A stretch of DNA of 64,000 nt from Leucoraja ocellata (GCA_036785375.1 JAWMAR010000067.1:2666001-2730000); one strand, 5' to 3'; counted from the stretch's first letter, positions 5,176 through 62,905 are shown. Made by a program: numbers and translations. Notes: generated by a model from the sequence alone, not told the origin.

Positions 5176-5620
5176 GGGGGCACAGTGGCGCAGCTGGTAT
5201 AGCCGCTGCCTCACAGTGGCAGAAACCCAGGTTCTGCGTGGAGTTTGCACGCTCTCCCTGTGACTACGTAGGTTTTCTCTGGGTGCTCCAGTTTTTTCTC
5301 GCATCCCAATGATGTATGGGTTTTACATTGTTTAAGAAAGAACTGCAGATGCTGGAAAAATCAGTCTGAAGAAGGGTCTCGCCATGAAACATCACATATC
5401 CCTTTGCTCAATAGATGCTGCTTCACCCACTGAGTTTCTACAGCATTTTTGTCTACCTATGGATTTTACATTGATCGGCCTCTGTCAATTGCCCCTGGTC
5501 TGCAGTGAGTGGATGAGAAAGTGTGATAACATAGAACTAGTGTGTGAATGGGTGGGTGATCAGTGGAACTCAATGTGCCGAAGGGTCTGTTTCCCTGCTG
5601 TATCTTTCATTTCAAACATT
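5176..5620 (+). mobile_element. V-SINE interrupted by a Penelope-derived short element (5331-5457)
   Basis: SINE head and V-domain, then an insert flanked by the 16-bp duplication tatgg(g/a)ttttacattg (5315-5330, 5458-5473), then the SINE tail. Confidence 0.8.
5331..5457 (+). mobile_element. Penelope-derived short element with hammerhead motif and inverted 3' piece
   Basis: cagtctgaagaagggtctcgccatgaaacatc core preceded by the inverted tail aactgcagatgctgg, with a 16-bp TSD. Confidence 0.75.
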
Positions 5621-5864
5621 CAATTCTCCCTTTAGTATCGACAGATGAAGTTAAACGGCAGTACTGATTGCAATAATTAAAAGCAACAGTTTCCCTATGG
5701 TATTGAAGGCAAGAAATATATAGTCGCATCGTTCCTGTTGCATCGTCTATTAATTAAATTAACAGCTGCAGATTTGCCACTGCCTTGTCACCAATAATTA
5801 AAATGCAGATTTTCTGCAGAAGAGGCGGCAACAAGTAAATCATAACAGGCTGTCCATACAGAGT

Positions 5865-6150
5865 TGGAACATAGAAAGATACAGCACAGGAACAAGCCCT
5901 TCAGCCCACAGTGTCTGTGCCGAACAATCCAAACTAATCCCATCTGCCTGTACATGGTCTACATCCCTCTATTCCTTGGCTGTTCCTGTGCCTGTCTACA
6001 TGCTTCTTAAATGTTGCTGTTATATATGCTTCCATTACTTCCTATAGCAGCTCGTTCTAGGCACCTACCACTCTAAAACATAAATTGTTTTGCAATCTCC
6101 CTTAAGCCTTGCTCTTAGTACTTTAAGGCTATGCCCTCTTCTATTTGACA
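5865..6150 (-). mobile_element. CR1-type LINE 3' fragment (older subfamily)
   Basis: acagcacaggaacaagcccttcagcccaca tail and degenerate ORF2 end, similar to 50080 and 62945. Confidence 0.65.
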
Positions 6151-6152
6151 AG

Positions 6153-7140
6153 AGTCAAGAGTGTTTTATTATCTTATATCCCAGATAGAACAATGACATT
6201 TTTACTTGCAGCAGTAAACAATATAATGTGAAAAAAAAGTTCAGTGGATATATAAAACAGACACACACAGACACAGACACATACAGACACATACAGGCAC
6301 ACACAGACACAGACAGACACACAAGTAGTGCAAAAGACGAAACCAATGCCATATTGTTCATAGCTTATTTGGAGGTTGTGTTGTTTAGTTGCCTGATGGC
6401 TGTAGGTAGAAGCTGTTCAGCACCTTCTTCCCGTTCGTGGCTAGGATGCATGTGGGTCTCTGATGACGTTGGCTGCCTTTTTGAGGCAGTGACTCCTGTA
6501 AATCCCTTTGATGGTGGGGGGGTCAGAAACCATGATGGACTGGGCAGTGTTCACCATTGTTTGCAGTCTTCTTCGCTCCTGGGCATTCAAGTTGCTGAAA
6601 CAGGCCGTTATGCAACCAATATGCTCTCTACACTCTAGAAGTCCAAGAGAGTCCTCTCTGACATACCAAATCTCCACAATCTTCTCTGGATGTCGACGCT
6701 TTGAGGGGCTTTCTTTACAATTGCATCAGTGTCTTGGGTCCAGGAAAGATCTTCAGAAATATGCACACCCAGAAATTTGAAGCTAGTGACCCTCTCCACC
6801 ATCATCCCATTGATATAGACAGTTTGTGGGTCCCATCCTTCCTCTTCCAAAGTCCACAATCAGTTCCTTGATTTTACTGACATTGAGAGCCAGGTTGTGT
6901 AGGATGGGACTACAGATGCTGGCTTAAACCGAAGATAGACACAAAATGCTAGAGTAACTCAGCGGGTCAGGCAGTATATCTGGAGAAAAGGAATAGGTGA
7001 CGTTTCGCATCGAGACCCCTCTTTAGACAGCCAGGTTGTTGCGCTGGCACCATTTGGTCTGTCGATCGATCTCACTTAAATACCATCACCTTCTGTAATT
7101 CGTCCATCAACGGTGGAGTCATCAGTGAACTTGAAGCTGT
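6153..7140 (-). mobile_element. Rex1/Babar LINE 3' fragment, interrupted at 6899-7028
   Basis: Minus-strand ORFs INGMMVERVTSFKFLGVHISEDLSWT and CITACFSNLNAQERRRLQTMVNTAQSI...CLKKAANVIRDPH. Contains an (ACACAG)n microsatellite at 6258-6322. Confidence 0.85.
6899..7028 (-). mobile_element. Penelope-derived short element with hammerhead motif
   Basis: Reverse complement of the pLTR consensus, with 11-bp TSD agccaggttgt (6888-6898, 7029-7039). Confidence 0.8.
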
Positions 7141-8384
7141 GTCCCTTCCGGAGCCAATCAAACACCTGCTTCTTAAGTGTCCTGCCTTCTCTTGAATAAA
7201 AACCCTCTTTTCAATCCAAACCAACTCTTTCACTGAACTCTCCTGCTGATTTTTCAAAAATGCTTTCTCTCCTCTCAAAATGACTGCTCACTAACTCTCT
7301 CCGTGACTTTTAAGGGTTTAAGTTTGATGTTTTGAAGATTAAAAAATAATCTCCCACCTCCCAGGGTTCTGCAACCTTCCCTCCTTTTATTGGCTGCTGC
7401 GCCTTTTCATGAATCAATCAAATTAACCAAAACACTGATTATAATAATTTTTAAAAGCTATTATACTTCAGCATTGGAGCGGTTATATGCAACATTGACC
7501 ATTATTCTAACCCAGCTCCAGATTGGATTGGGCATTGACTACAATTATTAAGCAGAACCATTTTCTCCATCATATAATTTAGTCAGAATTGATTTTTAGC
7601 AGCATTTAGTGCAATGATTAAACAGCTGTGGAGAGAAATAATGTTTAGGTGGTAGGTTAGATGCCTGTCAAATAGGCTGCTTTATCTTGAATGTTGTAAA
7701 CGGGCATCAACAGTTCCTTATTTCTATATGTTGACTGTGCCACTGAAATCTCCTCAAGGTGTGCCTACCTTGAAGAAGTTCTCCTCCTCTCCCCGACGGA
7801 AGTCCTTTAGACTTTAGAGATACAGCGCGGAACCAGGCCCTTCGGCCCACTGTATCCGCATCGACCAGCGATCACCCCCTCAGTTAGACTCTCTCACTGC
7901 TTTCCTCCCCTTCCAACCCTGCACAGATATTGTGGGCCAAAAGACCTGTTCCTGTACTATAGTGTTCTATGGTTTTTGTTCTCTGTGCCCAAAGACAGCT
8001 TGATGAAAGTACTACATCCCAGCTGACGTCTAAGTATTTCTGGACCATGACTGTTCAAAATGGAGGAGAATTGGGGATAATGTTGAAAGCCATCATTTCA
8101 CGCATCGGGAACACACAGAAGGCCTGTATAAGTCGTGGGAAGATCACGCCATCCTATACACCACCCACTAGCCCATCTGTCAAACCACCTTCTGCCCCAT
8201 TGCAGAAGCTTCTGCAATTCCCACATTGGCCACATCCATCACCTCAAAAACCCACAAAGCCAAAGTGGAATTATGTCCCCCTCAATCCTCAGGGACCGTC
8301 TAAGCTACGGAAAGAAGAAGAAGAAATGAACCGTCCCTCGGCGGTATTGCCCATAGTAATTCAAACGCTGCAACAATTGCATGC

Positions 8385-9015: not shown

Positions 9016-9524
9016 AGGGCAATTTTTCCACACAGCATTTCTGACGTCAAAGAATGCTGAGCTCATTCACACTAAACTGAATTGCAACCCTCATTAGCTG
9101 TCCTAACCATCTAATGCAATTCCCTACAACCATTAGACTATTAAATTACCCCACAAATAAGCTCTGAACTACATAGACTTGTTTCTTTGCACTATTAATG
9201 TCTGTTTGTTTTTATGTGTATGCATGTATGCGTGCATATACACTGCACTTTATCGCTTATTATATTGTTTACAGAGTACTATGTTTACATATTCTTTTGT
9301 GCTGTTGCAAGTAAGAATTTCACTGTTCTGTCTGAGTCATATGACAATAAAACACTCATGACTAATATTGACCCAAACCTGGATTATATGAGATTTTCCA
9401 CTACATGACAGCAACTTGTGAATGCTTCCTTATCAAAATAGGAATTTTCACCTTGAACCCACTAGAAAGGCAGAAACAGCTGTTGCTTGCGTATCGATTC
9501 TACACTTTCCTTGATACATACATT

Positions 9525-9682
9525 CTATGTATCTCCCTCTCCCCTGACATCAGTCCAAAGAAGGATCTCGACCCAAAATGTCACCCATTCCTTCTCTCCA
9601 GAGATGCTGCCTGTCCCGCTGAGTTACTCCAGCATCTTGTGTCTATCTTTGGTTTAAACCAGCACCTGCAGTTCCTTCCGAC
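9525..9682 (+). mobile_element. Penelope-derived short element
   Basis: cagtccaaagaaggatctcgacccaaaatgtcacccattccttctctccagagatgctgcc...cagttccttcc. Confidence 0.8.
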
Positions 9683-10289
9683 ATATATTTACACCTCAAC
9701 GCTTTGCAGAATGTCACACTATATGCCATCTTGTGAAATACCTCTCTTTTGTGTTGACTGTTGACTGATGGACAATGTTATTGATGTTCCTCAACTCGAA
9801 GAGAGTAGTGGGTCAGGGAGGCAGCTCCACACCACCCTCAATACCAATGAAGAAGTGCTAATCCCTCGGTGCTGTCCACCACACCTGCATAAAAACAAAC
9901 AAACAAAAAACCACTGTACCTCCCTCATAGGAGGAGCAGGCTGGCTTTAAACTACACGGACTAGCTTTAACTGGAGTTTGCAGCTCCACACATTGACTCC
10001 TGCTAAAGTCACTTGGTGCTGGCTTAATGCCACCATCATTATAATGAGAATCAGCATAAGCCTGGCACATTGCCTGCATCACATTGAACAAGCACAGGCT
10101 AATCGTGCATCTCAATCCCTGGGCTCCTTTACGCCGTCTGTCAAATTTAGCCTCTGTTATCTCCATTCCTTCTGTTGTGGTTCGGTGTGGGTTAGTCGTA
10201 GGCTAAGACAGCACCAACCATGTATTTGAATGCGTCTTTGAAGAATGGAGAATGTAACCAAGAATATTTTGTCATAAACACAGGCGCAA

Positions 10290-10560
10290 GGATATGTCTC
10301 GACCCAAAACGTCTCCTGTCCATGTTCTCCAGAGATGCTACCTGACCCGTTGAGTTAGCCCAGCATTTTGTGCCCTTTTGTGTATTAACCAGCATGTGCA
10401 GTTGTTTGTTTCTATGAGCTGCAGATGCTGGTTTTTAACCAAAGAAAAGACACTAAGTGCTGGAGTAACTACGTGGATCAGGCAGCAACTCAGGCATATA
10501 TCTCCAGAGATGTTGCCTGACCCGCTTAGTTACTCCAGCACTTAGTGTCTTTCTTTTAGT
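10290..10560. mobile_element. Cluster of Penelope-derived short elements including a fold-back pair
   Basis: A forward copy at 10295-10413, then inverted arms 10441-10471 and 10527-10557 that are near-perfect reverse complements. Confidence 0.75.
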
Positions 10561-11586
10561 CGTAAACACATTAGCCGCCTTTGACCTGATTCGAGTTTGA
10601 GAAATCAAATTTAGTGAACTATTCCAGCAAACAGATTGGGAATCATTTAAGCTTTCAGCTAATGGTTTTGTGGAATCATTAAATAAATTTATCAAGGTGG
10701 ATGACTGGAGGCAAGAAATGCAAAAGGTGTTCCAGGGATTTTCAAATCATGAAACCTCCAGAGACAAAACCATGGAAACATTGGAGTGCTGGAAACCTTG
10801 TAGTGAGCCTGTGGGTCTCTGATGGTTATCAACCATGCTTCCCTTGTCGATATAGAGGTGTCGGTACACATATAACATTTGATGCAACGCAATTGGCATT
10901 GTACCAGTGCGTATCGTCACATAAAAAGCACTGGTTATCAGTAGATGACAGGATCAAAGAGCTGGCGTAACTCAGCAGGTCAGGCAGCATCTTTGGAAAA
11001 CATGGAGAGGTGACATTTTGGGTTGGGACCCTTCTTCAGTATCTGCAGTTCCTTGCGTCTAGGGTCTTTGCAACCGTAGGATTTGACACACTACCAATTT
11101 GATGAAGGAAACCCGAAATGCCTGGTTTAATATTAGATTTCACAGACAATATATTGATAAACTTCAGTTTAGTTTATTGTCACTTGTACCAAGGTGCAGT
11201 GAAAAGCTTTTGTTGTGTGTGGGAAGATTATAAATGATGACAGTCATGCCATCCACAGAATAAAGGGAATAACATTTGGTGAAAGTAAGAAATGCTGTTG
11301 TTGGAGCAGAGGTTTAAAAGAGTGGAGTGATTGTAATGCGTGATTGCAGATCCATTTCTGGGGCCAGGCCTGGCTGAGACGCCATCTTGGATGTGGTATC
11401 GGAAAGTGCAAACTGAATTTAGATTCGAACAAGCCATTGTTAGTCAATAACATTGTTTCCTTGCTGACTAGTTTGCAAGCACTAGATATTGAGCATAGGA
11501 TTTGTTGTGCACAATTTGAAATGCTTTCACTTTTTCCCAGTGTTACTTCATAAAACAATGCCAATTTAAGCTCTTTCTGTTTGCAG

Positions 11587-11706
11587 CATCTGGAGTAGCA
11601 CAATTTGAAGAAAACAAGGAGATTGCAAATAATAACCTAACTACCTGGAATTTTACTTGGCTGCTAAAGGATGAGACACCTTTGTCTACCTATCAAAGAC
11701 CACAGG
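11587..11706 (+). CDS. ltk: Internal coding exon (ALK exon 2 equivalent) of an ALK/LTK receptor tyrosine kinase, probably LTK
   Basis: Acceptor ctctttctgtttgcag and donor CAGG|gtgagt. 120 bp, phase 1-1. Encodes xSGVAQFEENKEIANNNLTTWNFTWLLKDETPLSTYQRPQ, similar to the recalled human ALK exon 2 motif TWNLTWIMKDSFP with the same exon length. ALK versus LTK assignment is uncertain. Confidence 0.85.
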
Positions 11707-12894: not shown

Positions 12895-13027
12895 TGTAGA
12901 ATAAGGAACTGCAGATGCTGGTTTATAAACAAAAAAGACACAATGCTGGAGTAACTCAGCGGGTCAGGCTGTATTCCTGGAGAACAAGGATAGGTGATGT
13001 TTTGGGTCAGGACCCTTCTTCAGACTT
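12895..13027 (-). mobile_element. Penelope-derived short element
   Basis: aaggaactgcagatgctgg...gagtaactcagcgggtcaggc...tgatgttttgggtcaggacccttcttcagact. Confidence 0.8.
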
Positions 13028-14195: not shown

Positions 14196-15038
14196 TGAAC
14201 TGGTTTACCAAGGAAAGACATAGAATACTAGAGTAACTCAACAGACCAGTGAACTTCCCTGAAGTATAAGTAGGTGATGTTATGTGTCGGAGCCTTCTTC
14301 AGACACCAAAGAAAAGAACAGGAGATTGATTTGCATTAACTGACACTTTTCATGGCCTCAGGCTGAGAGTGCATTGGATAATAGATCAATATCCAGTGGG
14401 TGGAGATGTTTGCTCACATCCCACCACGGCAGCTGAGAAGTTTAAATTCAACTTGCTATGTATATTTGGAATGAAAGACTAAGATCAGTAATGAACAGTT
14501 CTTAAAAATGACCTGTTTCATGATTTCCTCTTGCCACCTTCACTTAGTCTGTGACTCCAGACTCATCATTGTGGCTTGTTTTTATACAGATGTCTGAAGT
14601 GGCCCAGTAAAATAATCATGTCCACGTCTCATGGCCGAATAAAGATAAGGTCAAACAGTAGCTCTCGCTGTCAATGTAACACCTTTGAAGTTTAGTTGCT
14701 GTGGTTAAGTGGGAAATGCTGGCTGATTTGTGCACACAACACGTTTTCGCAAGCAGACAGGTGATGAGAGCACGTTCCCTTTCCAGCGCTGAAGGAAGGA
14801 TATAATATTGATTTGGACAATTTGGGATAAATCTCCAGTGAGAGCAGATGGAGCTCAGTTTAAAATCGGATCTAGAAGACGGTGCGATTACTTGCGGACG
14901 CAGCCCAGACCATCACTAAAACCAACCTAGGGAAAGAAAGACTGAGAGGCTTCTGACCCGATACGTCACCCATCCTTTTTCTCCAGAGATACTGCCTGAC
15001 ACACTTAGTTAATCCAGCTACTTTGGTGTAAACACAAA

Positions 15039-16285: not shown

Positions 16286-16299
16286 TCTCTTTCAAAATG

Positions 16300-16940: not shown

Positions 16941-16977
16941 GCTACTATATCTTTATGTTTGAAATGTTGTCACCGAT

Positions 16978-18866: not shown

Positions 18867-18997
18867 GGGAAGAAGATTTGGGATGTTAACAGCTCAATTT
18901 CACTGTCTCCTTTGTCATAGGCAGACACTTTGAGGTGACAAAAAGCCCCACAGGACCTGTAGTAACTGCTTCTAATGCAATACATTAACGCTGTGGA

Positions 18998-19229
18998 TAA
19001 ACACAAAATGCTGTCGTAACTCAGTGGGTCAGGCAGCATCTCTGGAGAAAAAGGATGGGTGATGTTTCGTGTCGAGACCTTTCTTCAGATTGAAAGTCAA
19101 TCTGAATTCATGTCTCAACCCTAAATGTCACCTATTCCTTTTCTCCAGAGATGCTGCCTGATCTGCTGAGTTACAACAGCATTTTGTGTCTATCGTCGGA
19201 GGAAACCAGCATCTGCAGTTCCTACCTCC
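18998..19229. mobile_element. Head-to-head (fold-back) Penelope-derived short element
   Basis: Inverted pLTR arms flanked by the duplication tta(a/t)cgctgtgg. Confidence 0.75.
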
Positions 19230-19299
19230 ATGTTATCGCTGTGGTTCCCAGCTATACATCACAGCTCTATGAAATGTATTTTGGACTTAGCCCATATAG

Positions 19300-20145: not shown

Positions 20146-20389
20146 CATTTTTCTCTGTCCCTTAAAGTTAATCCACTGAAAGCTCCTGGCTGGTCACAAG
20201 GACAAGAACTGTAAAAACAAAGAATAGTAGATGGCAATGTAGACAAAAGGACACAAAGTTCTTCCCGAAGGATCCCGACCCAAAATGTCACCTGTACACG
20301 TTGAAGAAGGGGCTCCTTTGGACTAAACCCAAAATGTCACCTATCATGTTCTCCAGAGATGCTGCCTGACCTGCTGAGTTACTCTAGTA

Positions 20390-20625
20390 CTTAGTTTAGT
20401 TTTGTTTAATCTCACATGTAACGAAGTACAAAGACAGGCTTTTTGTTGCGTGCTAACCAGTCAGCGGAAAGACAATACATGATTACAATCGAGCCATCCA
20501 CATGATAAAGGGAATAATGTTGAGTGCAAGATAAAGTCCAGCAATGTCTGATTAAAGATAGACCTAGTGTCTCCAGTGAGGTAGATAGTAGCTCAGGACC
20601 GCTCTTTAGTTGTTGATAAAATGTC
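20390..20625 (-). mobile_element. Rex1/Babar LINE 3' UTR fragment
   Basis: ttttgttgcgtgctaaccagtcagcggaaagacaatacatgattacaatcgagccatcc, a tail shared by many copies. Confidence 0.75.
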
Positions 20626-23699: not shown

Positions 23700-24110
23700 T
23701 TGCATTCCTTCTCTCTCCATCCCTCCCCCACCTTAGTCATCCTACTTGTTGCACTGTCATCATGCTTAGTTTCACGGTTTAAAACTAGTTATCACCTTTT
23801 CCACAGCCAACAATTGACCATTGTGGGCTCCACCTTGATCATCGTTGCTGGCATTGATCTGTTCTTTTCATACATTTCCATTTATTTGTTTTTTGTACCT
23901 TTTCATACTTCTAGTTTCCCTCTCGCTTGACTCTCAGGCTGAAGAAGGATCTCGACCCAAAATGTCACCTGTTCCTTTTCTTCAGAGATGCTACCTGACT
24001 CGTTGAGTCACTTCAGCATTTTGTGTCTATCTTCGGTGTAAACCGGCATCTGCAGTTCTTTCCTGCACATTCCTGACTAGCTGAGTTACTCCAGCACTTT
24101 GTATTTTAGT
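23700..24110 (+). mobile_element. Penelope pLTR / 3' UTR fragment with decayed hammerhead
   Basis: Pyrimidine-rich 3' UTR followed by caggctgaagaaggatctcgacccaaaatgtcacctg and the conserved tail. Similar to 39200-39440 (minus) and 62230. Confidence 0.75.
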
Positions 24111-26756: not shown

Positions 26757-27033
26757 TTTTTAGTTTTCGAGATACAGCGTGTAAACAGTCCCTTTACCCA
26801 CTGAGTCTGTGCCAAGCAGTGATCACCCGTACACTAGTTCTATCCTACACACCAGGGACAATTTACAGCAGACAATTAACCTACACACCGGCACATCTTT
26901 GGAATGTGAGAGCACCCAAAGAAAACCCACACGGACACAGGGAGAACATGCAAACTCCAAACCGGCAGCACCCATAGTCAGGATCGATACTGGATCTCTG
27001 TCGCTGAAGGCAGCAACTCTACCATTGTGCCGC
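26757..27033 (-). mobile_element. V-SINE
   Basis: Minus-strand head, V-domain and tail. Confidence 0.8.
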
Positions 27034-27139
27034 CTGTCCATTTCCTCCAGAGATGCTGCTTGACGCCATGAGTTCCTCCAGCATTTCCTCCAGCAGTTTT
27101 TCCCAAGATTCCAACATCTGCAGTTCCTTGTTTCTACCC

Positions 27140-29990: not shown

Positions 29991-30137
29991 TGTATCTGTG
30001 CACTGCGGACGTGTATCTGTACACTGTGGACGGCTCGATTATTATCATGGATAGTCTTTACACTGATTGGAAACAAAAAAACTATTCACTGTATATCTTG
30101 GTACACAAGACAATAATCTAAACTGATCTCAATTAAA

Positions 30138-30270
30138 TGTGTAGGAAAGAACTGCAGGGGCTGGTTTACACCGAAGATGGGCACACAATGCTGGAGTAAC
30201 TCAGCGGGTCAGGCAGTATGTCTGGCAAGAAGGAATGTGTGACGTTTTGGGTCGAGACCCTTCAGACTAA
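30138..30270 (-). mobile_element. Penelope-derived short element
   Basis: tgtgtaggaaagaactgcag...gtgacgttttgggtcgagacccttcagact. Confidence 0.75.
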
Positions 30271-31444: not shown

Positions 31445-32826
31445 TGTAGATTGGTTATTTCCTATTAACCAATGGGAGTGATTTTTTGTAGTGGCTCCCC
31501 CTAATATGTGATTTATATTACCAAGATCTTGCTTGCGTAATGAAGTCTGAGTATCTGCAAGTTACTGTAATGTCCTGCAGACCAGTGCTGTAAGTGGACT
31601 TTAATAAATATGTGTTCTGTCTTGACGTGTGTGCGACTTGACATTACATGGTGTCAAAAGTGGGATGCGAACCTCCAATTTGAACCTGAACAACATTACG
31701 CCCAGATTGAAAATGAATTGCTTGCAGTGGTTTTTGCCTGCACGGAATTCAAAGACTTTATTTTAGGGAAGTCTGTAATTATAGAAACAGACCACCAGCC
31801 GCTGGTCACCATCTTGAATAAACCCATTCACACTGCTCCGGCTTGCCTGCAACAGATGATGATGCAGCTGTAGCCTTTTGATTTTAACATTTTCTATAAA
31901 GAATGTCTCGTCATTGTCTATAAAGTTTGGCTCGTCAAACCCTTGCTGCCCTGCCTGTACCCCAGCAGCTTCTGCAGCCAAAGGTTCATTCTCCACCCGC
32001 AGTCCAGAAACTTGTTGAACTACAATTCAAGCGCGATGCACAAAAACGTTTTTTCGACAAGTAAGCCACTTAAACCTCTCTCCAGTGGACAGGTTGTTTG
32101 CCTCCAGACCAACAAGGGCTACGGCCGTCTGGGTCACATCCACAGCCCTGCCAAAGAACCGCGCTCCTGCCTGGTTAGCGAGGACGGGGCCATTTACAGA
32201 CGCAACCATCAACATCTCCTTCCTGTGAAGGAACCGCATCCTGCGACTTCGTATCCAGTGGTCTCGCGTTTTTCATACCCTCCCACTACCGGGCCGGCTG
32301 CTCCACCACCAGAGACTGTGTCCCCCGCAGCCTCTCAACGGCATTCAGTGCCCATCTCGCCTATTTCACCACCTCTATCCGGCGGGTCTCCGGCGCCGCC
32401 CCCGGTCACATCCCCTATCACCTCCACAGTCACTTCACCGGTGAAAGGAGGAGATGCAGATTCGTACCGCACACGTGCCAGACTATCAGCAGGCCACCCA
32501 TTAGATACGGTGATTTTGTGTAACCATTTATACTTCCCCATATGCTTTATTAACGTTTCAGCTGCTGTATTGTTTAGCCACCATGTTTCCACGTATAGAT
32601 GCTTTATTTTGTTTCTACAAGATGTAGATTGGTTATTTCCTACTAACCAATTGTAGTGTTTGTTAGTAGTTGCTCCGCCTCATATGCGATTTATAATACC
32701 AAGATCTTGTTTGCGTAATTCAGCCTGAGTAGCTGCTAGTTACTGTAATGTCCTGCAGACCTGTGCTGTAACTGGACTTAAATAAATAAGTGTTGTATCT
32801 TGACGTGTGTACGACGACTCATTACA
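31445..32826 (+). mobile_element. Internally deleted Gypsy (Mag-like) LTR retrotransposon
   Basis: LTRs 31445-31648 and 32623-32826 (204 bp each, TGTA...TACA) and 5-bp TSD ATTTC (31440-31444, 32827-32831). PBS TGGTGTCAAAAGTGGGAT. RNase H remnant YAQIENELLAVVFAC...IETDHQPL and integrase C-terminal remnant PRSCLV...IYRRNHQHL. Confidence 0.95.
31649..31666 (+). other. Primer binding site (tRNA-Leu type)
   Basis: TGGTGTCAAAAGTGGGAT directly after the 5' LTR, one mismatch to the tRNA-Leu(CAA) 3'-end complement TGGTGTCAGAAGTGGGAT. Confidence 0.85.
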
Positions 32827-33744
32827 ATTTCAATGCTTCCTAATAGATTTGGCTTTGTTTAAATAACTCTTGATCTTCATTGCAATGTTTGATTTTGGTG
32901 GAAACTATTGTACAGTAATTCAAGGCTGTTGATCATTTGGATATTGCTCCATTTAGCTGCTGCGATGTTACCGGGATGATAGGTTTTGTGGCGGAAGTTC
33001 TTGGTAATTATTCATTAGTGTTACAGCAGACAATCGGGGAAAACCTCCCAGAGCAAATCGTGCTTGTGTGCTTTTCATTATTGCAGCATTCCTTCACTGT
33101 GCCAGGGAGTTTTACCTGTGTCTTTTAGTTTTAGATATACAGCGTGGAAACGTGCCCTTCGGTCCACTGAGTTTATATATACCGTTTGTGCATATACACA
33201 TATGCAGGTTGAGATAACATAATTTTAGTACATATGCAGGTTGAGATAACATAGTTTTAGTTCCTGCCTCAACTACTTCCTCTGGCAGCTCGTTCCATAA
33301 AAACATTTGTATAAACAAATGTTACACAAACCGAGGATTGACTGAAGAAGGGTGCTGACCAGAAACGTTGTGTATATATGTGGTTGTTAATTCAGATAAA
33401 CCCTTGGTGAACGTAACTTTCTTTGATAACTTTGGTTCATATTATGGCCCAGAGCTGCATGTTCTCTCAGCCTGCATGATCAGTGATTACAGCTGTTACA
33501 GAAGGATTTACAGATGTTAATCAGCATTCGGCCTCCCCCCTCCCCCCCTCCTTTTTCATTTATGCGTGCAGCACGGTTGTGGGAAATCCAACCTGAACCA
33601 TATTAGTTCTTTGCTAATTATCTGTGTCAACCTTTCCGACTTCAGATAACCCCTCTGCTCAGTTATCTCTCTCAGGGGTGGAAAATACTCTTGTGTTCTT
33701 TGGCTCGGAATTCTTTCTAACACAGTTCTGCGTGTTGGGGTATT

Positions 33745-38645: not shown

Positions 38646-38892
38646 CCTAGTTCTCAGCATTGCAGTGCATCTGTTCCATGGACAAAGACCAGTGTCCCTA
38701 ATGAGGTCGGGGTGAATCGGACAGTACTCTCGCTTACGGAAGGACCGTTCTGAAGCCTGATAACTGCGGGGAAGAAGCTGTTCCTGGGTCTGGTGGTGCG
38801 CGGTTTCAAGCTCTGTGCCATCTGCCTGATGGAAGCAGGGAGTTGAAAGAATAGTGGCGTTTTGGGTCGGAACCTTTTCTTCAGACTCAGAG

Positions 38893-39199: not shown

Positions 39200-39580
39200 G
39201 GGGGGGGGGGGGGGGGGGGGGGGGGAGGGGGGGTGAACTGCCAGAACAAATCAGGGCCGGCAACCGATGACCTCAGGAAGAATGCAGCCCATAATGGCCC
39301 TTATTGACTGAGGAAGGTGTGAGAACAAGAGCGATGCAAGGGTGCGAACAGTAGAAACTGGTAGGAAGACTGGGCCGGAGGAGGTGAGGGGCAGAGAATG
39401 CAGGAAATACTTGAAATGAGAGAAATCAACGTTCATATTGCTGGTGTTTAAGAAGGAACTGCAGATGCCGGAAAATCGAAGGTACACAAAAAAGCTGGAG
39501 AAACTCAGCAGGTGCAGCAGCATCTATGGAGCGAAGGAGTTCATATTTCTGGGTTGTATGCAGCCCAAGCGTAATATGAA
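39200..39580 (-). mobile_element. Penelope-like element 3' end with a nested pLTR-derived insert (about 39445-39538)
   Basis: The minus strand reads ...FRLGCIQP(..)MNVDFSHFK* (PLE ORF end). The insert is flanked by the duplication gttcatatt(g/t)ctgg. Confidence 0.7.
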
Positions 39581-40852: not shown

Positions 40853-41145
40853 AACAAAGAACTGCAGTTGCTGGTTTATACCAAAAATAGACACAAAGTG
40901 CTGGAGTAACAGTGGATCAGGCAGCATCTCTGGAGAAAAAGGATGGGTGATATTTCGGGTCGGGACCCATCTTCAGACTAAAGAAGGGTCTAGCTATCTC
41001 TAACAATCTGGTAAACCTCTTCTGCACCCGCTCCATAGCCTCCATATCCTGCCTGCCATGGGGATCCAACCTGAAAAGTCACCCATCCTTTTGCTCCAGA
41101 GATGCTGCCTGACCCACTCAGTTACTCTAGCACTTTGTGTCTTTC
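40853..41145. mobile_element. Inverted pair of Penelope-derived short elements with filler
   Basis: Minus copy 40855-40979 and plus copy about 41065-41145, flanked by the duplication tg(t/c)aaataataatga. Confidence 0.7.
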
Positions 41146-41865: not shown

Positions 41866-42106
41866 AATAAGGGTTTAAGATGGTTTGTGTGACCACCACA
41901 TCTGCCAGTTCAACCACCCTCACTTGTATCCACCTATCACTTGGCAGGCATTGTCCCGCCCCTACCTCTCCTGCCTAGCTTTCTGCCCCTTTATTACAAT
42001 CAGGCTGAAGGGTCTCATGCACAAAGGTCATCTGTCGATTCCCTCCACAGGCATTTAGTTTATTTTAGTGTCATGTGTACCGAGGTACAGTGAAAAGCCC
42101 TTTTAG

Positions 42107-45543: not shown

Positions 45544-45854
45544 ACTTCCTAATACAAGATCGAGATGAGACCCATCTCCATTTGGATTTTAGGGCGTTAA
45601 CCTCCAGGACTTTCTTGGATGCATTGGACAAATTCTACCCAATCTACTATCCTTGCACTCAGCCAACCCCAGTTAATTTTGGGAAAAGTTAAAATCCCAC
45701 TATTGTAACCCTATTTCTCTCAAACCTTCATGCGACTCGCTTACATACTGTATCTGATCCTCTAATTGCCTCTGGCTGTTGGATGGCCTGTATAATCACC
45801 TTAACCTCTCCAATGTTCTTCAGGTCTGGACCTTTCTTCAGATTGATTGTAGGG

Positions 45855-46102
45855 GGAGTGTACAGAGTTTGTACTGTCTCCCTGTGACCATGTGGGTTTT
45901 CTCCGGGTGCTCCAGTTTCGTCCCGCATTCCAAAGACGTGCAGGTTTGTACAGTGGGTTAATTGGCTTCTGTAAATCGCTCAGAGTGTGTAGGATGTTAA
46001 AGTGGGATAATATAGAACTCATGTACGTACGGGTGATCGATGGTTGGCGTGGAATCAATGGACCCGAGGTCCTGATTCCACGCCATATCTCCGAAAACTA
46101 GA
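45855..46102 (+). mobile_element. V-SINE, 5'-truncated
   Basis: V-domain and tail. Confidence 0.75.
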
Positions 46103-47245: not shown

Positions 47246-48075
47246 AACCAATCACCATATTTATATGGAAGGTAGAGGAGTAACTCTGGAGAAACGGAAC
47301 AGGTGACGTTTCGGGTCGAGACCAGTTCCTTCCTACCATATTTATATTTATGGTGATGAGTTCCTCAATAAAAATATTGGTTTGGCCGACTGAATACACA
47401 GATAGGAAATTCACAGATAATGAGGACTGAGTGTGTAAACCATGCAAGCTCCTTTGGATCCGTGGCGATTGCCTGAGGGGAGGCTGCAAGAGTGCATTCT
47501 GTGGATTAGCAGGGTATTACTAATAGCAACTGCTGTCAGTTCTTGCTGTCAGGTTTCCTCGATTGCAACGGTGAGAGCTGACAGCCTTTGTGTTATTTGC
47601 ATAATTAATTCTGGTCAAATATTGTTTGCACCATCCGTTTTCGTGAACTGAAAGCGAAAATCAAAGAAAAAAGCAAAGCAGGTCAGTTAGCATTAAATCC
47701 GAAAGGAAGCTCCCAAGTAAAATCTTTCCCTGACAGAAATTTTAACTGAATGAAGGATTGTGATTTATTGGATAATTATTTTCATGATTCTAGTTACTTT
47801 GATTATTTTCCAACTTGGTTGCAGCACAGAATACAGTTTAGTTCCCCCGACAGCTTGCTAATTTACCAAAAAATAGACACAAAGTGCTGGAGTAACTCAT
47901 CGGGTCAGGCAGTATCACTGGAGAACATGGATCGGCCCTCTGTGATTCCTGGTGCTCACCAGCTCCCTTCATCTTTGGCCTTCGTCCACTAATCAAATAA
48001 CCATTCATCATCACCGGCAATGCTCTGTCCTGCCCCTCTCTCACAGTTTTCTTTCCCAAACCCCCCACAATCAAA

Positions 48076-48590
48076 GGCGACACAGTGGCGCAGCAGCAGC
48101 TTTGCTGCCTTACAGCACCAGAGACCCGGGTTTGATCCTGACTATAGGAGCTATCTGTAAGAGTTTGTACGCTCTCCCTGTGACTGCGTGGGTTTTCTCC
48201 TGGTACTCCTATTTCCTCCCACATTCAAAAGACGTGCAGGTGTAGGTTAATTGGCCTCTGTAAGTTGTAAATTGTTCCTAGTGTGTAGGAGAGAACTAGT
48301 GTATGGGTAGACAAAATGCTGGAGTAACTCAGTGGGACAGGCAGCATGTCTGGAGACAAGGAATGGGTGACGTTGTGGGTCGAGAACCTTCTTCAGATTC
48401 GTCACACATTCCTTCTCTCCAGAGAAGGCAGCCTGTCCCACTGGGTTACTCCAGTATTTTGTGTCTATCTTTGGAGTAAACCAGCATCTGCAGTTCCTTC
48501 CTACACACTTGTGTTTGGGTGATCGCTGGTCGGCGTGGGCTTGGTGGGCCGAAGGGCCTGTTTCCATGCTGTATCTTTCAACTAAACTAA
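48076..48590 (+). mobile_element. V-SINE interrupted by an inverted pair of Penelope-derived elements (48308-48508)
   Basis: The SINE continues at gtgtttgggtgatcgctggtcgg after the insert. Another pLTR copy follows at 48592-48722. Confidence 0.8.
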
Positions 48591-49084
48591 CCAGTCCGAA
48601 GAAATGTTCCGACCTGAAACGTCACCTATCCTTCTTTTCCGTAGATGTTGCCTGATCCGCTGAGTTACTCCAGCACTTTGTATCTTTCTTTGGTATTAAC
48701 CAGCATCTGGAGTTCCTTGTTTATTGTTAATTTTCTTTTCTGCTTTCGACACTCTTCATTGTACATATCACAATGCCAACTCCCTCTCTTGAAATATTTA
48801 TGTACTTACAGTAATCCAGAGCATAGATGATGATCCAATCATCTGTTTTTCTTGTTGTAAACTGATAATTGAAACACAGCAGATTAGTGATAAATCTTTC
48901 TTCACCTGATAACATTTAACTTCTTCAACTAATTCTTGGCATCCCATTACATCACTGGCCTACTTCCCAAAGATAAATGGTATCTGGTAAAAGACCAGAA
49001 AATTTCAGGCTTTGTTTCAAACAAAAGTGAAAGCAATTATTTTGAAATAAAAACAAAATGCCCTGATACATTTGATGGCTCTGG

Positions 49085-49500: not shown

Positions 49501-49644
49501 TTGAACTATACCCAATACTGGAGACACATGGAACGGCAGGCGCTGGATTACAAAGAAAATACACAAAGTGTGGTAGTAACTCAGTGGGTCAGGCATCATC
49601 TCTGGAGAACATGGATGGGCGACATTTCAAATTGAACAAAGTAC

Positions 49645-50078: not shown

Positions 50079-50079
50079 T

Positions 50080-50400: not shown

Positions 50401-50585
50401 TTCTTACTTTTAGGATTGGATCTCTTCTTCCACCTCCTTTCCAGCTTTTAACCCCCCATGTACTGCAATCAGTTTGAAGAAGAGTCCCAATCGGAAAAGT
50501 GATCTTTTCCATATTCTCCAGAGATGCTGCCTGACCTGAGTTACTCCAGCATTTTGTGTTTTTATCTAATAATGGAGTATTAGGG

Positions 50586-54830: not shown

Positions 54831-55549
54831 ATGATAACACTGCCTTCAGCACCTTGATCTCAATGAAACTCATCTCCAAACTCCTGGACTCTATGCTGCG
54901 CCATTGTGCCGCCCTAGCAAGTAAATCAAGTTGTGGCATGGGAATTATGCAGAAACATAACCCATTCCAAGGTGTAAAAATACGAGAAAACATTTCCGAT
55001 GATCTTAGTCATATTCTGCATTATCCCAATACCACTAATGCGTTTTCACACTAAACAAATCCTCTTCTTAGGCAGTCTCCTGGGATCAAAAATGACTTAA
55101 CAGAGTAAAATAAATGTCAAAGCAATCAGCAATTAATTCCACCTAAAAAAATGTAAATGCTAAACATTAACATTTTCAACGATGTTTCAAACATTGTGCT
55201 TTAAAGGGGAATGCCACAGTCAGCAATAGAGTGGAGATAGATGCTTCAGATAATGCAACAATCCTAGTGTTTAATTAAGATCTCCATTTTACTGAGGTTT
55301 TCATTTCGTTTACATCTTTCACAATGAATACACAGTTTAGTATATGTACAGTATCAAAAGAAATTGGTTAACTCTGATTGGAGAAATAAATCATCAGATG
55401 GATCAGAAGTGAAAATATTTAGTATAAAATATTTAAATCTCACTCTACTCTTGGTCTATTTTCCAAATGTGCTTGATTTGGTTATTAATGATGTAACCAT
55501 AGTTATGAATACGAGCACAAAAGCATTAGGTTACCAACATTTTCTGTTC

Positions 55550-56438
55550 TATACCCTGTAAATCTGCTCTCACTCCCCATCCCCCCACTTGTAACAAGGG
55601 CAGAGTTCCCCTTGTCCTCACCTTCCACCCTACCAGCCGTCACATACAACAAATAATCCTCCGACATTTTCGCCACCTCCAACAGGATCCCACCACTGGC
55701 CACATCTTCCCATCTACTCGCCTTTCAGCTTTCCGCAAAGTTTGCTCCCTCCGTAACTCCCTGGTCAATTCGTCCCTTCCCACCCCCACCACCCCTTCTC
55801 CTGGCACTTTCCCTTGCAACTGCAGGAAATGCTACACTTGTCGCTTTACCTCCCTCCTTGACTCCATCCAAGGACCCAAGCAGTCTTTCCAGGTGTGGCA
55901 GAGGTTCACCTACACCTCCTCCAACCTCATCTATTGCATCCGCTGCTCTAGGTGTCAGCTGTTCTACATCGGTGAAACCAAGCGTAGGCTTGACGATCGC
56001 TTCACCCAACACCTCCACTCGGTTCGCAATAACCAACCTGATCTCCCGGTGGCTCAGCACTTCAATTCCCCCTCCCATTCTGAATCTGACCTTTCTGTCC
56101 TGGGATTCTTCCATGGCCAGAGTAAGGCCCACCGTAAATTGGAGGAGCAGCACCTCATATTTTGCTTGGGTAGTTTACACTCCAGCGGTATGAACATTGA
56201 CCTCCAATTCTAGGTAGTTCCTGCTTTCTCATTCTTTCCCCTTCCCAGCTCTCCCACAACCCACTGTCTCTGCCTGTTCCTTCCTGCCCCCCTCCTCCCA
56301 CCCCCGCATCAGTCTGAAGAAGGGTCTCGACCCGAAACGTCGCCTAGTTCCTTCGCTCCTTAGATGCTGTCTCACCCGCTGAGTTTCTCCAGCATTTTTG
56401 TCTACCTTCGATTTTCCAGCATCTGCAGTTCCTTCTTA
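55550..56438 (+). mobile_element. Penelope-like element (Neptune-type), 5'-truncated, with GIY-YIG endonuclease remnant and pLTR
   Basis: FTYTSSNLIYCIRCSRCQLFYIGETKRRLDDRFTQHLHSV...VAQHFN...RKLEEQHLIFCLGSLHSSGMN, an upstream CNCRKCYTC zinc motif, and a 14-bp TSD aacattttctgttc (55536-55549, 56439-56452). Confidence 0.93.
56310..56346 (+). ncRNA. Minimal type I hammerhead ribozyme motif in the Penelope pLTR
   Basis: CTGAAGA (56314-56320), helix II GGGTC/GACCC, GAAA (56334-56337), palindromic ACGT helix III, and GUC cleavage triplet ending at 56341. Confidence 0.75.
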
Positions 56439-56823
56439 AACATTTTCTGTTCGGTGTTTTAATGGGACTATTAATCCATTCAAAATACAGGGCTCTCATT
56501 TCAGTTAGAATAGGAAATACAAGACTTCTAAGAGAACATTAATGTGTAAGCAATCAACATGAACTGTAGGGTAGATTTTATTCTGCTACAGTCCATATGT
56601 TGTGCACAATGTGTGTCAGCGGGTCACACAACATTGTCTTTCAATTTATTTTAGCAGGCAGATATTTACACAACAAAACACACAAAGTGCCCCGAGTAGT
56701 GAAATTTACACTGGCCTAAACAGTGCACAATAGAACATAGACCATAGAATATATAATATATGACCGAACCTTGTAGAGGGACTGGAGATGCTGGTTTACA
56801 AAAAAAGATATTTGCAACAGAGA

Positions 56824-57066: not shown

Positions 57067-57682
57067 TGCTTTAAACTCACCCTCTCACTTTATAGCTTTC
57101 CCCTCTACCCTATCTCTTCCTCTTATAATGTTATATACTTTTATTAGGTGTCCTCTCAACATCCATCATTCCAGAGAAAACAATGCAAGTTTAAACAACT
57201 TCTCCTTATAGTTAATACCCAGGCAACTTTGTGGCAAAGCTCTTCTGCACCCTCTTGTCAACTTTGCCACCCAATTTGCCACCCGTCCCCAATTCCATCG
57301 GTGTCCAAAGGGTTACCCATCTCAGCCTTGTGTGTATTCAGTGACAGAGTATCCTGTTCCTTCCCACATATCTCTCCACTTCAACAAAAAATGTAAGCAT
57401 AGTTCACTTTGCTAGCTCCAAGCAGTGTTGTTGGATGAAATCGTTTCTCAGCAGAAGAGAGCAGAACAAGAAGAAAATAAATATATGCTTCGCCAGATAA
57501 TGATAGTGTGATGTACAGCATGGTGCTTCAACGATACATTACATGGAGTGAAAAATGGAAGTTCTGCCACAAAAGCTTGCCTTTTTGGATCAATTAAGTT
57601 ACATTTTGCCCAGCATGGAAATGTCAAAGACTAAAGGGTATAGCTTTAAGGTGAGAGGGGAAAAGTTGAAATTAGCTGTACA

Positions 57683-59668: not shown

Positions 59669-59754
59669 GTGAGTTTCCATATTGTATAACTCTGAGTTAC
59701 AGAAAATAGGCTGTTTCTGTATTGTTTACACTCTTGTTGTGCAAATAAGCAGAT

Positions 59755-60050: not shown

Positions 60051-60393
60051 TGGCAAGACTAGTGTGAATTCCTATCTGTTAAAATGAGTGCTAAGATAAT
60101 GATGTACAACCCACTGACACAAATTGTGACATTTGCTTTGTAGCTGGATAAAATCCATCCATCAATTCATTAATGGACTGAGTTGTGAGTTCTCTTAATG
60201 TTCTCTCGGACGTCTTGCTGTTTACTATTTTCACTGTAACAGGATCTCACTATTTTGAATAGCTTAATGGTTCCATTAAAACACTGCACGGAAAAATGTA
60301 TTACTCTAATGCTTTTATAATGGATCTAATAACTATTACCATATCCTAATCAGATAACAGTTACGCTGTAGAAAGAACTGCTAACTTACACCT

Positions 60394-60696
60394 CGTTGAG
60401 CTGCTGCCTCACAGCGTCAGAGATCCGGGTTCAATCCTGACCTCGGGTGCTGTCTGTGTGGATTTTTACATTCTCCCTGTGACCGTGTGGGTTTTCTTCA
60501 GATGCTCCAGTTTGATCCAACATCCCAAAGACATGCAGGTTTGTAGGTTGATTGGTCTCTGTAAATTGCCCCGAATATGTAGGGAGTGGATGAGTAAGTG
60601 GGATAACATAGAACTAGCGTGGACAGGTGATCGATGGTCAGCATTGACTCGGTGTGCCGAGGGGCCTGTTTCCATGCTGTATCTCTAAATTCTAAA
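60394..60696 (+). mobile_element. V-SINE
   Basis: Head, V-domain and tail. Confidence 0.85.
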
Positions 60697-61009
60697 TAGT
60701 AAAATCATGGATATTTAGAAAGTAGAGCATTTTGGCAAGCAATATGAAGATGGTTAAATCACTTTATCGAATGGTGTTGGTCTGAACTTCCGATCTACAA
60801 TATCTGATACCACTTATTTCTCCAATATAAACAAAACTAAATTGCTATCCAATTTGCCATCATGGTATTATTGAGTAAAATTGACAACTGCTTTAAAATG
60901 TGTTTATCCTGCCCTATAGTCCAACATACTTAACACGTGTGAAGTGACTTTTGGCTTCTCCACCTGATAAAACATCAGGACTGGTTCGACAAATCTTGAT
61001 ATTCAGGAT

Positions 61010-61137
61010 ACAAGGAACTGCAGATGCTGGCCAGCAAAAAAAAAAAAAAAAGTGCTGGGGTAATTCAGTGGGCCAGGCAGCATCTCTGGAGATCATGGAT
61101 AGGCGAATATTCAGGTCTGGACCCTTCATCAGACTGA
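61010..61137 (-). mobile_element. Penelope-derived short element
   Basis: aaggaactgcagatgctgg...caggtctggacccttcatcagactga. Confidence 0.75.
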
Positions 61138-61477
61138 TTTCTTTTTGTGTTTTTTTTTGTTGAAACGATAAATGGCAGATAGGATTTGATTTAACATTTC
61201 AACTGAAATGCTTTCTGCAATTCAGTATTCCCTCTGTGCTGCTTAGATTATGTGCTCATAGCTAACGACCAGGGACCTGAGTTCACAAGGGTCTGACTCA
61301 AGAGATGAGAATGTTGACATTGAGCCACAGATACGTACCATTAATGCATGAAACTTCGTGCTCAGATTCTAATAAACCAAAGCGTGATTTGAATGTTCCT
61401 TGCTATCAGATGATAGGTTGGTAACATTTAAAACATTTTCTAATTATTCGCTTTGTATTCCTTCGTCACCACCACCT

Positions 61478-62232
61478 GCGAAGTGGCGGCGCCTAACGGC
61501 AGCGCTCGACTGTAGTCCGTCTGTCTTTTTTAATTTTTGTCCCGTTAGATATATGTTTTAGGTTCTAATTTTTATTATTTTTTAGCTGTGTTTATGTGGG
61601 GGGGGAAACCCGTTTTAATCTCTTCCATGTACGGGGACCCGACTTTTTCCCTGTCGGATCTCCGGTGTCATTGGGCCTAACATCGTGGAGCCAGCGGTGG
61701 CCTCCAACCGGAACCAACCTGAGGGCTCTGGTCGCGGAGCCTGCGGACTCGCCATCGAGGAGCTGGCTGTCTTCGGAGCGGGGAGAGCTATGGTGGCGTG
61801 TGACTGCAACCCGACTTCGGAGCCTGGACAGTAACATTGGGAGCTCGCAGGTCCCTGGTGGGAGACCGCTTTTCGGTGCTCCCGCAACAGCAACTTCTCC
61901 CACCGGAATCGCGGGGTTTAAATGACTCGGAGCGGGACCTAATATCGCCCGGCACAACTTAAACAGCCGCGGGACTTACCATCGCTCGCCGGGGGCTTTA
62001 ACATCGTGATCCCCAGTTGCCTCGACGGTGCAGATAGACTGCTGGACCGCGGGAGACGAACAAAGGGAAGAGATAAGACTTTTGCCTTCCATCACAGTGA
62101 GGAGCTGTTGGAGATTCACTTTTGTGTTTTGTGTAAATTGTGTTAAGTGTGTGTCTTGTTTTTTTGTAATTTTGTTCAAACCTTGTCTGTTTGAATGACA
62201 ATAAAAGGCATTCTATTCTACTCTATTCTATT
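61478..62232 (+). mobile_element. CpG-rich bipartite non-autonomous LINE-derived element
   Basis: Starts cgaagtggcggcgcc (similar to Rex1-type 5' ends), has no RT coding sequence, and ends tgacaataaaagg(cattctatt)n like Rex1 tails. Confidence 0.6.
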
Positions 62233-62905
62233 CCTCTCCTCAGCCAACAATGGGCCATCATGGGCTCTACCCTCCCTATTGCCATCAGGGCTTTTGTTAC
62301 CGCGTCCCCCCCCCCATCACTGCACCCCTACTTTCAGTCTGAAGAAGGGTTCTAACACAAAAAGTCAACCATTGTTTTTTTGAAGAGATACTGCCTGATC
62401 TGTTGAGTTACTCCTGCATTTTGTGTCTATCTTTGGTATAAACCAGTTCCTTGTTGCTACATTTTGTCTGCTCTACTGCTCCACTATGAAATCTCCTCAA
62501 GGTATGCCTACTTTGAAGAAGGTCTCCTTTCTCTGACAGGAGTTCTGCAACACCCTTTGTCACTACTCCCCTTCTGTGATACCAGTTCCCCAGTTCTCCA
62601 TATTGTTTCCCTCTTGTGATCACACATTCCCACGCCAACAATGAGTTTGCCAGACACCACCCTGCCTGAGGTCATTTGTGGCCAACCTTGATTGGTCCTG
62701 GTCTTTTTCTTGCCTCCAGCTCTTCATCTCCAACCACCCCCACCCCCCATTCTCCACACACCCCTACTTTAAGTCCGAAGAAGGGTCCCGACCCCAAATG
62801 TCACCCAGCCTTTTTCATAGAGATGCTGTCTAACCTGCTGAGTTACTCCTACACTTTGTGTCTATCTTTGGCATAAACCAGCATCTGCAGTTCCTTGTTT
62901 CTACT
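62233..62905 (+). mobile_element. Tandem Penelope pLTRs with spacer
   Basis: Two pLTR copies (hammerhead relics at about 62339 and 62775). The spacer 62480-62545 matches 7740-7800. Confidence 0.7.

Follow-up and report, generated by a model that had tools for sequence, protein, structure and literature searches.

Units derived from Penelope-like elements in the Leucoraja ocellata window

The 64,000-nt stretch of Leucoraja ocellata DNA analyzed here (GCA_036785375.1, JAWMAR010000067.1:2666001-2730000; the window) holds a 5′-truncated copy of a Penelope-like element (PLE) at 55550-56443, the long copy, and numerous shorter units related to its 3′ end. The initial annotation of this DNA proposed that the units form a ~130-bp, hammerhead-bearing non-autonomous family resembling short interspersed nuclear elements (SINEs), mobilized in trans by the reverse transcriptase (RT) and GIY-YIG endonuclease (EN) of the PLE. 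Our analysis identifies them as inserted hammerhead-plus-tail ends, that is pseudo-long terminal repeats (pLTRs), of several Penelope subfamilies apparently of Neptune type, old and mostly decayed. The units are a PLE by-product of known kind, real and abundant, and their one sharp feature is a 5′ boundary at -3/-2 ahead of the hammerhead core. Positions within the unit are counted from the C of CTGAAGA (56314), and anchors were placed by eye.

A profile hidden Markov model (HMM) built from 10 copies yielded 50 matches in the window at E<5, compared with three (best E 0.76) on the reversed window. All counts cover the 64-kb window: the 38 matches at E<0.01 were used to define loci, of which there are 29, covering 3,584 bp (5.6% of the window), and 43 hits were used for the tallies of ends and strands. 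The unit pattern had no match in metagenome and viral contigs. A copy was recovered at each of the 12 example positions cited earlier. The close resemblance to the pLTR of the long copy holds for its own subfamily (97% identity at 5329-5359 and 91% at 39445-39538), but most near-full-length units are 70-84% identical. Nor is every unit ~130 bp long, as eight of the 24 core-reaching arms continue past the core into the C/T-rich pLTR upstream.

The target-site duplications (TSDs) named in the initial annotation are present at 5315/5458 (16 bp, one mismatch), 6888/7029 (11 bp, exact), 47254/47335 (13 bp, exact) and 40841/41149 (12 bp exact, or 15 bp with one mismatch). Four of the TSD-flanked examples, at 5331, 18998, 40855 and 47270, are inverted two-arm insertions and not single units. 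The long copy has an exact 14-bp TSD (55536-55549 and 56439-56452) that overlaps the last 4-5 nt of the element. A TSD score of at least 10 was obtained at eight of 22 insertions examined, among them the long copy and the four sites of the initial annotation, versus 2.7% of 150 random pairs; a ninth TSD (18985/19233) scores 9 and adjoins both insertion edges.

No host exon was found in the window by inspection of 77 long frames, by strict and relaxed exon scans or by Pfam searches of 92 of 1,010 stop-to-stop segments, which matched transposons only. The intronic location given for the units in the initial annotation was thus not confirmed. The best unexplained exon-like candidate, at 11589-11705 (+), has strong acceptor and donor scores and 39 open codons, and its frame is without a Pfam match. 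A remnant of an LTR retrotransposon lies at 31571-32653 (+), with a match to RT-associated RNase H (PF17917, E 1.3e-11) and a pol-like frame downstream.

The parent element and the anatomy of the unit

The long copy provides the reference for the unit, and its features are as follows.

55550..56443 (+): 5′-truncated PLE copy, apparently of Neptune type (subfamily A), with linker and GIY-YIG end of the open reading frame (ORF), C/T-rich 3′ untranslated region (UTR), hammerhead and tail; from sequence, domain match and TSD
55554..56213 (+): open frame encoding a Zn-finger-like CxxCxxC linker and the GIY-YIG endonuclease; its identity to RT-GIY-YIG proteins of sharks and rays is 58-63%
56309..56313 (+): TCAGT directly before the core, comprising the 5′ strand of helix I and the AG after the pyrimidine tract; 5′-end hot spot at A56311/G56312 in reads and alignments
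56312..56343 (+): putative minimal type I hammerhead, with CUGAAGA at 56314-56320, helix II at 56322-25/56330-33, GAAA at 56334-37, palindromic ACGU, predicted cut at 56341|56342 and 2-bp helix I; from the fit to the published minimal hammerhead ribozyme (min-HHR)
56408..56443 (+): optional tail of ~35 nt between two 3′-end classes (+126..+131 and +86..+101), from the 3′-end tally; matches the tail described in PMC11167929

The GIY-YIG endonuclease that the initial annotation placed in this copy is found at the C-terminus of the open frame (PF01541, E 1.7e-5). The nearest full proteins are RT-GIY-YIG products of whale shark, devil ray, zebra shark and bamboo shark, with the identities given above, which points to a cartilaginous fish as the likely host. 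The ORF is 5′-truncated and retains only the linker and GIY-YIG end; a relative, P0001 (61% identical), has RVT_1 (below the cut-off) and GIY-YIG. The peptide CNCRKCYTC fits the Zn-finger-like CX2-5CxxC linker between RT and EN, which is defined for Neptune and shared with Nematis and Naiad (PMC8557442; here and below, statements on published work refer to the available parts of each text). These features point to an EN-containing (EN+) PLE of Neptune type as the parent, the label Neptune being chosen because of the linker type and because Neptune has been reported in vertebrates. The window holds no second ORF remnant of this family.

Two protein models elsewhere contain sequence of this kind. 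In P0005, a ray gene model for neuromedin-U receptor 1, the last ~60 residues correspond to the GIY-YIG C-terminus of the long copy, either through exonisation or because the gene model is in error. In zebra shark, the PLE protein model P0003 reads through the 3′UTR, and its end peptide is what a CUGAUGA...GAAACGUC hammerhead would encode, as judged from the protein.

The units share the EN+ PLE hallmarks of pLTR hammerhead, tail, inverted pLTR and TSD. At least three tail types were distinguished by eye in the alignment, and the tail type of the long copy (subfamily A) occurs at three loci only (5331, 39446 and 55550). The 3′ ends of the 43 hits fall into two main classes, with 21 at +126..+131 and nine at +86..+101, and 17 hits begin inside the unit. 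In the anole PLE, a tail of 30-40 bp lies between two internal RT start sites, and both target strands are extended (PMC11167929). Seven of the insertions are inverted composites: six consist of a tail-bearing and a tail-less arm joined head to head (5331, 10944, 18997, 40853, 47267 and 48310), and one has three arms (10288). Outside CpGs, the arms of an inverted pair differ by 10-12.5% in three of four comparable pairs versus 23.6% for 371 other pairs, as expected if each pair arose in a single old event; rare variants common to both arms were uninformative (one site in four pairs). The TSDs, the tail and the inverted arms support the earlier proposal that the units were inserted by the PLE RT/GIY-YIG protein. 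The inverted composites show in miniature the published pattern of an inverted pLTR plus tail.

Some further features of the units were observed. In both tailed subfamily A copies, a frame beginning with an ATG at about +50 stays open as far as the 3′ end; a stop interrupts it in five of 13 copies. In three of four full units folded (56361-56428 and others), the predicted structure joins AGAUGCUG near +48 to CAGCAUCU of the tail, with z-scores that are not significant; this pairing would put the priming region on a stem. At 40994-41060, the inverted arms of one insertion enclose about 65 nt of unrelated sequence, all within a single TSD pair. This spacer has a weak match to a repeat at 57232-57255 and looks like a 3′ piece of a long interspersed nuclear element (LINE), which suggests that the template was switched as the PLE integrated.

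Clustering of 5′ ends ahead of the hammerhead core

Twenty-four arms reach the core. Sixteen stop within -8..+2, with a peak at -3/-2, and the other eight run on for 17 to 764 nt into C/T-rich pLTR. With 17 stops per 2,953 nt elsewhere in the unit as baseline, 6% would be expected per arm to stop in this zone (binomial P 2e-14, a value to be read with the caveats that the two arms of a pair are not independent and that anchors were set by eye). The extended arms were scored separately because local alignments end near -6 partly through divergence of the upstream sequence between subfamilies; loci 38846 and 45819 swap classes when judged by eye, which leaves the 16:8 count unchanged. The hot spot lies 30 nt upstream of the predicted ribozyme cut.

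Public sequencing reads contain the same boundary. Four runs (X1, X4, X22 and X23) were mapped to 55500-56500 at 82% likeness; X22 is a poly(A) RNA run and X1 a DNA-type run, and the RNA libraries are fragmented poly(A) and single-cell ones, covered to 6% and 1% of the runs, with related organisms among the sources. In X22, 633 reads have a loose end at 56311 and 576 at 56312, with heterogeneous flanks (agreement 0.33); their sum is greater than the 971 reads at the main 3′ end, 56442 (agreement 0.35). Loose ends at 56311 are also listed in X1 (404 reads; agreement 0.31). Backward joints lead to the same nucleotides, from 56443 to 56311 (10 contigs each in X1 and X4), from 56398 to 56311 (seven and five) and from 56408 to 56312 (seven and nine). 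An apparent stop at 56307-56310 (56309 in X22) was rejected as an artefact, the consensus of its loose ends being that of other subfamilies running upstream. In window arms and reads alike, the 5′ ends thus cluster just before the core, so the random truncation that the initial annotation had considered as the contrary outcome was not what we found.

At the position preceding A56311, G is the most frequent letter in both runs that list 56311 (X1 and X22), and the flanks are A/T-rich. Copying of the cap by RT gives an untemplated G, and this letter may be a hint of such a trace. The depth over the hammerhead bin exceeds that of the last full ORF bin 6.2-fold in X22, 4.8-fold in X23 and ~3-fold in X1 and X4, which indicates that ORF-bearing copies are common. 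There is no pile-up of RNA starts or ends anywhere in 55500-56500, including the predicted cut.

Copies in the window

The insertions other than the long copy are listed below, with positions in the unit as defined above; a dot marks composites without a single strand.

5331..5457 (.): inverted two-arm insertion, tail arm 5331-5359 (-) and tail-less arm 5360-5457 (+) from -6..-3; lies in a SINE-like repeat; TSD 5315/5458
6899..7028 (-): full unit on its own, beginning exactly at G(-2), within a LINE RT remnant; TSD 6888/7029
9500..9685 (+): subfamily B unit continuing upstream for ~50 nt of C/T-rich pLTR; 5′ edge approximate
10288..10556 (.): three-arm insertion (+,-,+); TSD 10267/10555
10944..11059 (.): inverted pair, tail-less arm (-) from the core and tail fragment (+); no TSD found
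12895..13026 (-): full unit from -3; no TSD found
14200..14304 (-): old unit from -2, 3′ end lost
14941..15030 (+): tail-less unit from the core; a 10-bp repeat (14919/15040) is offset from the edges by 9-12 nt
18997..19232 (.): head-to-head pair, both arms from about -5 in a short palindrome; TSD 18985/19233 (12 bp, one mismatch)
20267..20403 (+): partial tandem, core fragment then tail-less unit
23700..24108 (+): unit reaching ~240 nt upstream into pLTR (subfamily B), then tandem tail-less fragment; 5′ edge approximate
27030..27134 (+): old unit from near +27, close to the predicted cut
30137..30268 (-): full unit from -3..0, adjoining a (TAAAC)n-type tract
33340..33368 (+): 29-bp core fragment, every catalytic nucleotide kept, helix II damaged
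38846..38889 (-): core fragment
39446..39538 (-): unit from about +35 (subfamily A); TSD 39431/39539
40853..41145 (.): head-to-head pair with ~65-nt unrelated spacer, tail arm from -3; TSD 40841/41149
41925..42049 (+): core fragment reaching ~75 nt upstream (5′ edge approximate)
45819..45860 (-): core fragment reaching ~17 nt upstream into pLTR, then SINE-like repeat
47267..47334 (.): minimal inverted insertion; TSD 47254/47335, 13 bp exact
47857..47935 (-): internal fragment, +29..+108
48310..48507 (.): head-to-head pair, tail-less arm from -1..-3 and tail arm from +20
48590..48723 (+): full unit from -4/-3
49523..49629 (-): unit from +19
50420..50564 (+): tail-less unit reaching ~50 nt upstream (5′ edge approximate)
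61007..61139 (-): full unit from -7/-6, CTGATGA core variant
62235..62462 (+): unit reaching ~100 nt upstream; pLTR sequence common with 23800-23834
62560..62904 (+): unit reaching 160-210 nt upstream (5′ edge approximate)

Three fixed-start units (30137, 38846 and 48590) adjoin SINE-type repeats at their (TAAAC)n-like tails, which may be a favoured target.

Origin of the fixed-start units

We consider it an even chance that the fixed-start units are cis run-off copies of the 5′ end of the element RNA, made after internal priming in the 5′ pLTR. By analogy with the anole PLE in vitro, the RT/GIY-YIG protein would nick both target strands and prime at two internal RNA sites bracketing the tail, which would yield the two 3′-end classes, the TSDs and the head-to-head arms with and without tail. 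Copying stops far more often at -3/-2 before the core than elsewhere, and the tandem junctions lie there too. The A of TCAGT, a sequence that by its consensus we take to be initiator-like (Inr-like), would be the transcription start, and priming at the tail near the RNA 5′ end would then give a run-off cDNA of ~133 nt; longer copies would go back to a template jump or to priming at a downstream pLTR. The inserts, ending as they do where priming took place, would be dead on arrival, and the hammerhead would be a passenger that sets no ends and decays neutrally.

Published properties of PLEs are in keeping with this scheme. The anole protein needed a template reaching to +172 of the ORF, although priming takes place at +111-118 (PMC11167929). 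Such a template exists only where the pLTR is followed by the ORF, at the RNA 5′ end, so priming there would give a short run-off of fixed length. The Drosophila Penelope transcript begins inside the upstream pLTR, from an internal promoter (PMC2377424). A related, complete two-pLTR PLE was found in a metagenome contig (L001:910-4176), with 201-bp repeats at 910 and 3976 that are 91.5% identical and a 989-codon open frame; both pLTRs carry a min-HHR and a tail, and the ORF runs from the first pLTR. The contigs L003, L005 and L006 are relatives of L001 that share the hammerhead, and L007 has an asparagine/threonine-rich frame.

Several observations weigh against run-off at the RNA 5′ end, in addition to the dependence between paired arms. 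L001 has no TCAGT at the corresponding place, Inr-like words occur at ~16 per kb, and no full-length element of the long copy's family was seen. The reads over 55500-56500, from poly(A) and single-cell libraries, list no RNA start; in X23 and X4, 56311/56312 are absent from the six top loose-end rows, and the rows for sequence before the unit represent other subfamilies continuing upstream. The unit at 6899 is the only isolated fixed-start unit with a strong TSD adjoining its 5′ end, the rest being inversion junctions or lacking a TSD, and G precedes A(-3) in only one of four window arms starting there. In D. virilis, >100 nt separate the transcript start from the hammerhead downstream of it, and an intron ends at helix I (PMC4209133, PMC2377424).

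The latter arrangement also bears on a second explanation, which is possible though clearly less probable than run-off: the units may be ordinary 5′-truncated copies primed in the 3′ pLTR, with RT stalling or the RNA breaking where the hammerhead meets the C/U-rich tract, a polypyrimidine-AG sequence similar to a 3′ splice site and perhaps bound by protein. The tract and AG directly precede the core in all eight extended arms, the D. virilis intron ends at the 5′ end of helix I, 17 of the 43 hits start within the unit, and dispersed single min-HHRs have already been read as truncated PLEs (PMC4209133). However, a splice cut would start the copies at T(-1) behind a common exon, whereas the reads give -3/-2 with heterogeneous flanks, and stalling at a long tract should spread the ends over a broad zone instead of two positions.

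We regard as unlikely, and as slightly weaker than truncation, the independent SINE-like family of the initial annotation, in which short genomic copies would be transcribed from an internal promoter and re-copied in trans by the PLE protein. The fixed 5′ and 3′ ends, the TSDs, the 3-6-fold depth over the ORF and the head-to-tail junctions of exactly one unit would all suit such a family, and there are precedents: PLE promoters can be internal (PMC2377424), pLTRs sufficed for trans mobilization in a rotifer (PMC3846280), and PLE-derived non-autonomous retrozymes occur in vertebrates (bioRxiv 10.64898/2026.07.22.740005). However, short and extended copies do not form separate groups, as their labels require five changes on the tree versus 5.3 when shuffled (274 of 500 shuffles as low), the tree covering 24 of 28 aligned arms with none of its 21 branches strongly supported. 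None of 27 copies has an RNA polymerase III (Pol III) B box with at most one mismatch, and an isolated A-like word is present in four. Moreover, the anole template needs the ORF sequence beyond the RT starts, as described above, whereas the short copies stop at the RT start and lack the sequence 3′ of it. The claim of independent mobilization is thus not upheld by our analysis.

The run-off explanation can be extended to a strong-stop-like PLE cDNA: tail priming near the 5′ end of the capped mRNA would run off at the start, and the ~133-nt product would then either integrate or jump to the 3′ pLTR to copy the whole element. We view this extension as doubtful.

Decay of the hammerhead motif

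The sequence of the units is consistent with the minimal type I hammerhead of Penelope origin reported in the initial annotation. The motif comprises the core, an extra A, a 4-bp helix II, the palindromic ACGU and a 2-bp helix I, and the majority line fits the core rule (CUGANGA, GAAA, UH and palindromic 15.2/16.2). Helix cells are paired in 75.6% of cases versus 16-40% for slid partners, and covariation shows no excess over shuffles (205/500). No Rfam hit reached the gathering score, and only chance hits fell within 56200-56500. Folding of six natural pieces gave z-scores of -1.3 to +1.3 with none in the hammerhead fold, nor did a cofolded dimer adopt it; the predicted fold pairs the core with downstream pyrimidines, and the predicted probability of helix II pairing in the full unit is 0.01. 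Every catalytic base is kept in two of 24 arms (56308 and 33340), which lie 23 kb apart. CpG retention is similar in the core (13/46) and outside it (9/27; P=0.79), and the loss of core bases is attributable largely to CpG decay. The strands of the 43 hits are balanced (22:21), and the strand ratio in X22 is 1.1:1 over the unit versus 2:1 over the ORF, where the strandedness of the library is deduced and inverted pairs dilute any bias.

These data bear on two roles for the ribozyme, both of which we consider very improbable. In a retrozyme-like cycle, monomeric or circular RNAs released by the hammerhead would serve as templates; the min-HHR motif is present, the unit at 27030 starts near the predicted cut and tandem junctions exist, but ends and tandem joints lie at 56311|56443 and not at 56341|56342, no RNA ends pile up at the cut (poly(A) libraries would miss circles), the HMM hits in the window include no array of full units (no dedicated tandem-repeat search was made) and no two adjacent intact cores, dimers in contigs are rare, and in the anole PLE cleavage is dispensable for insertion in vitro and HHR mutants are without effect (PMC11167929). 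The initial annotation further suggested that intact sense copies within introns pair into dimeric hammerheads that cleave the host pre-mRNA, which the palindromic ACGU would allow in principle (PMC4209133) and for which 29 loci in 64 kb offer material, but this is made improbable by the scarcity and spacing of intact cores, the equal CpG loss, the balanced strands of hits and reads, the low predicted helix II pairing and the lack of a host exon or gene in the window scans; published min-HHRs cleave weakly or need the PLE protein (PMC4209133, PMC11167929).

Comparison with known systems

The units are closest to EN+ Neptune-type PLEs (PMC8557442, PMC3846280), which share the C-terminal GIY-YIG with CxxC linker, the pLTR hammerhead, TSD lengths of 11-16 bp, arms joined head to head, partial tandems, a tail of 30-40 bp at one end and unrelated sequence captured between arms. 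EN+ PLEs are described with variable 5′ truncation, whereas two-thirds of the core-reaching arms in the window stop in an 11-nt zone peaking at -3/-2. The anole Poseidon element PAc (PMC11167929) is similar in its two internal RT starts around the tail, the extension of both strands, the dispensable hammerhead and the absence of RNA reads ending at the cut; it belongs to another clade, and the available text maps 3′ ends and does not mention a fixed 5′ end. Metazoan min-HHRs (PMC4209133) have the same core, extra base before helix II and palindromic helix III, and their thousands of single copies, along with closely spaced pairs on opposite strands, have been interpreted as truncated PLEs; they differ in that the available text contains no shark data and that the window units have a 4-bp helix II and a 2-bp helix I.

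Non-LTR retrozymes (PMC7229834; bioRxiv 10.64898/2026.07.22.740005) are also non-coding, derived from PLE pLTRs and equipped with a type I hammerhead, and have been reported in one chondrichthyan, but they form tandem arrays processed at the ribozyme, whereas the window units are dispersed single or inverted inserts with junctions away from the cut. SINEs are likewise short, abundant, flanked by TSDs and dependent on a partner RT; unlike them, the window units have no Pol III B box, no tRNA- or 5S-like head was seen, and no separate clade was shown. In the available texts on min-HHRs, on pLTRs, tails and inversions, on internal priming and on retrozymes (including PMC8969392 and PMC13526784), we found neither a report of a fixed 5′ end ahead of the hammerhead nor one of the long copy's chondrichthyan family, although Fig. 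S2 of PMC11167929 may show the same boundary. The family is probably present in automatic repeat libraries as Penelope.

Implications

For annotation, an abundant short repeat occupying 5.6% of the window is explained as PLE debris and not as a new SINE. How pLTRs are regenerated and what the hammerhead does in PLEs are open questions in the field (PMC2377424, PMC8557442, PMC11167929). A sharp 5′ boundary that lies ahead of the ribozyme and not at its cut points to the start of the template RNA and bears on the replication cycle of PLEs. If the strong-stop-like extension were true, an LTR-like strand transfer would rebuild the pLTRs, and transfers that failed would have left a very large fossil record in shark and ray genomes.

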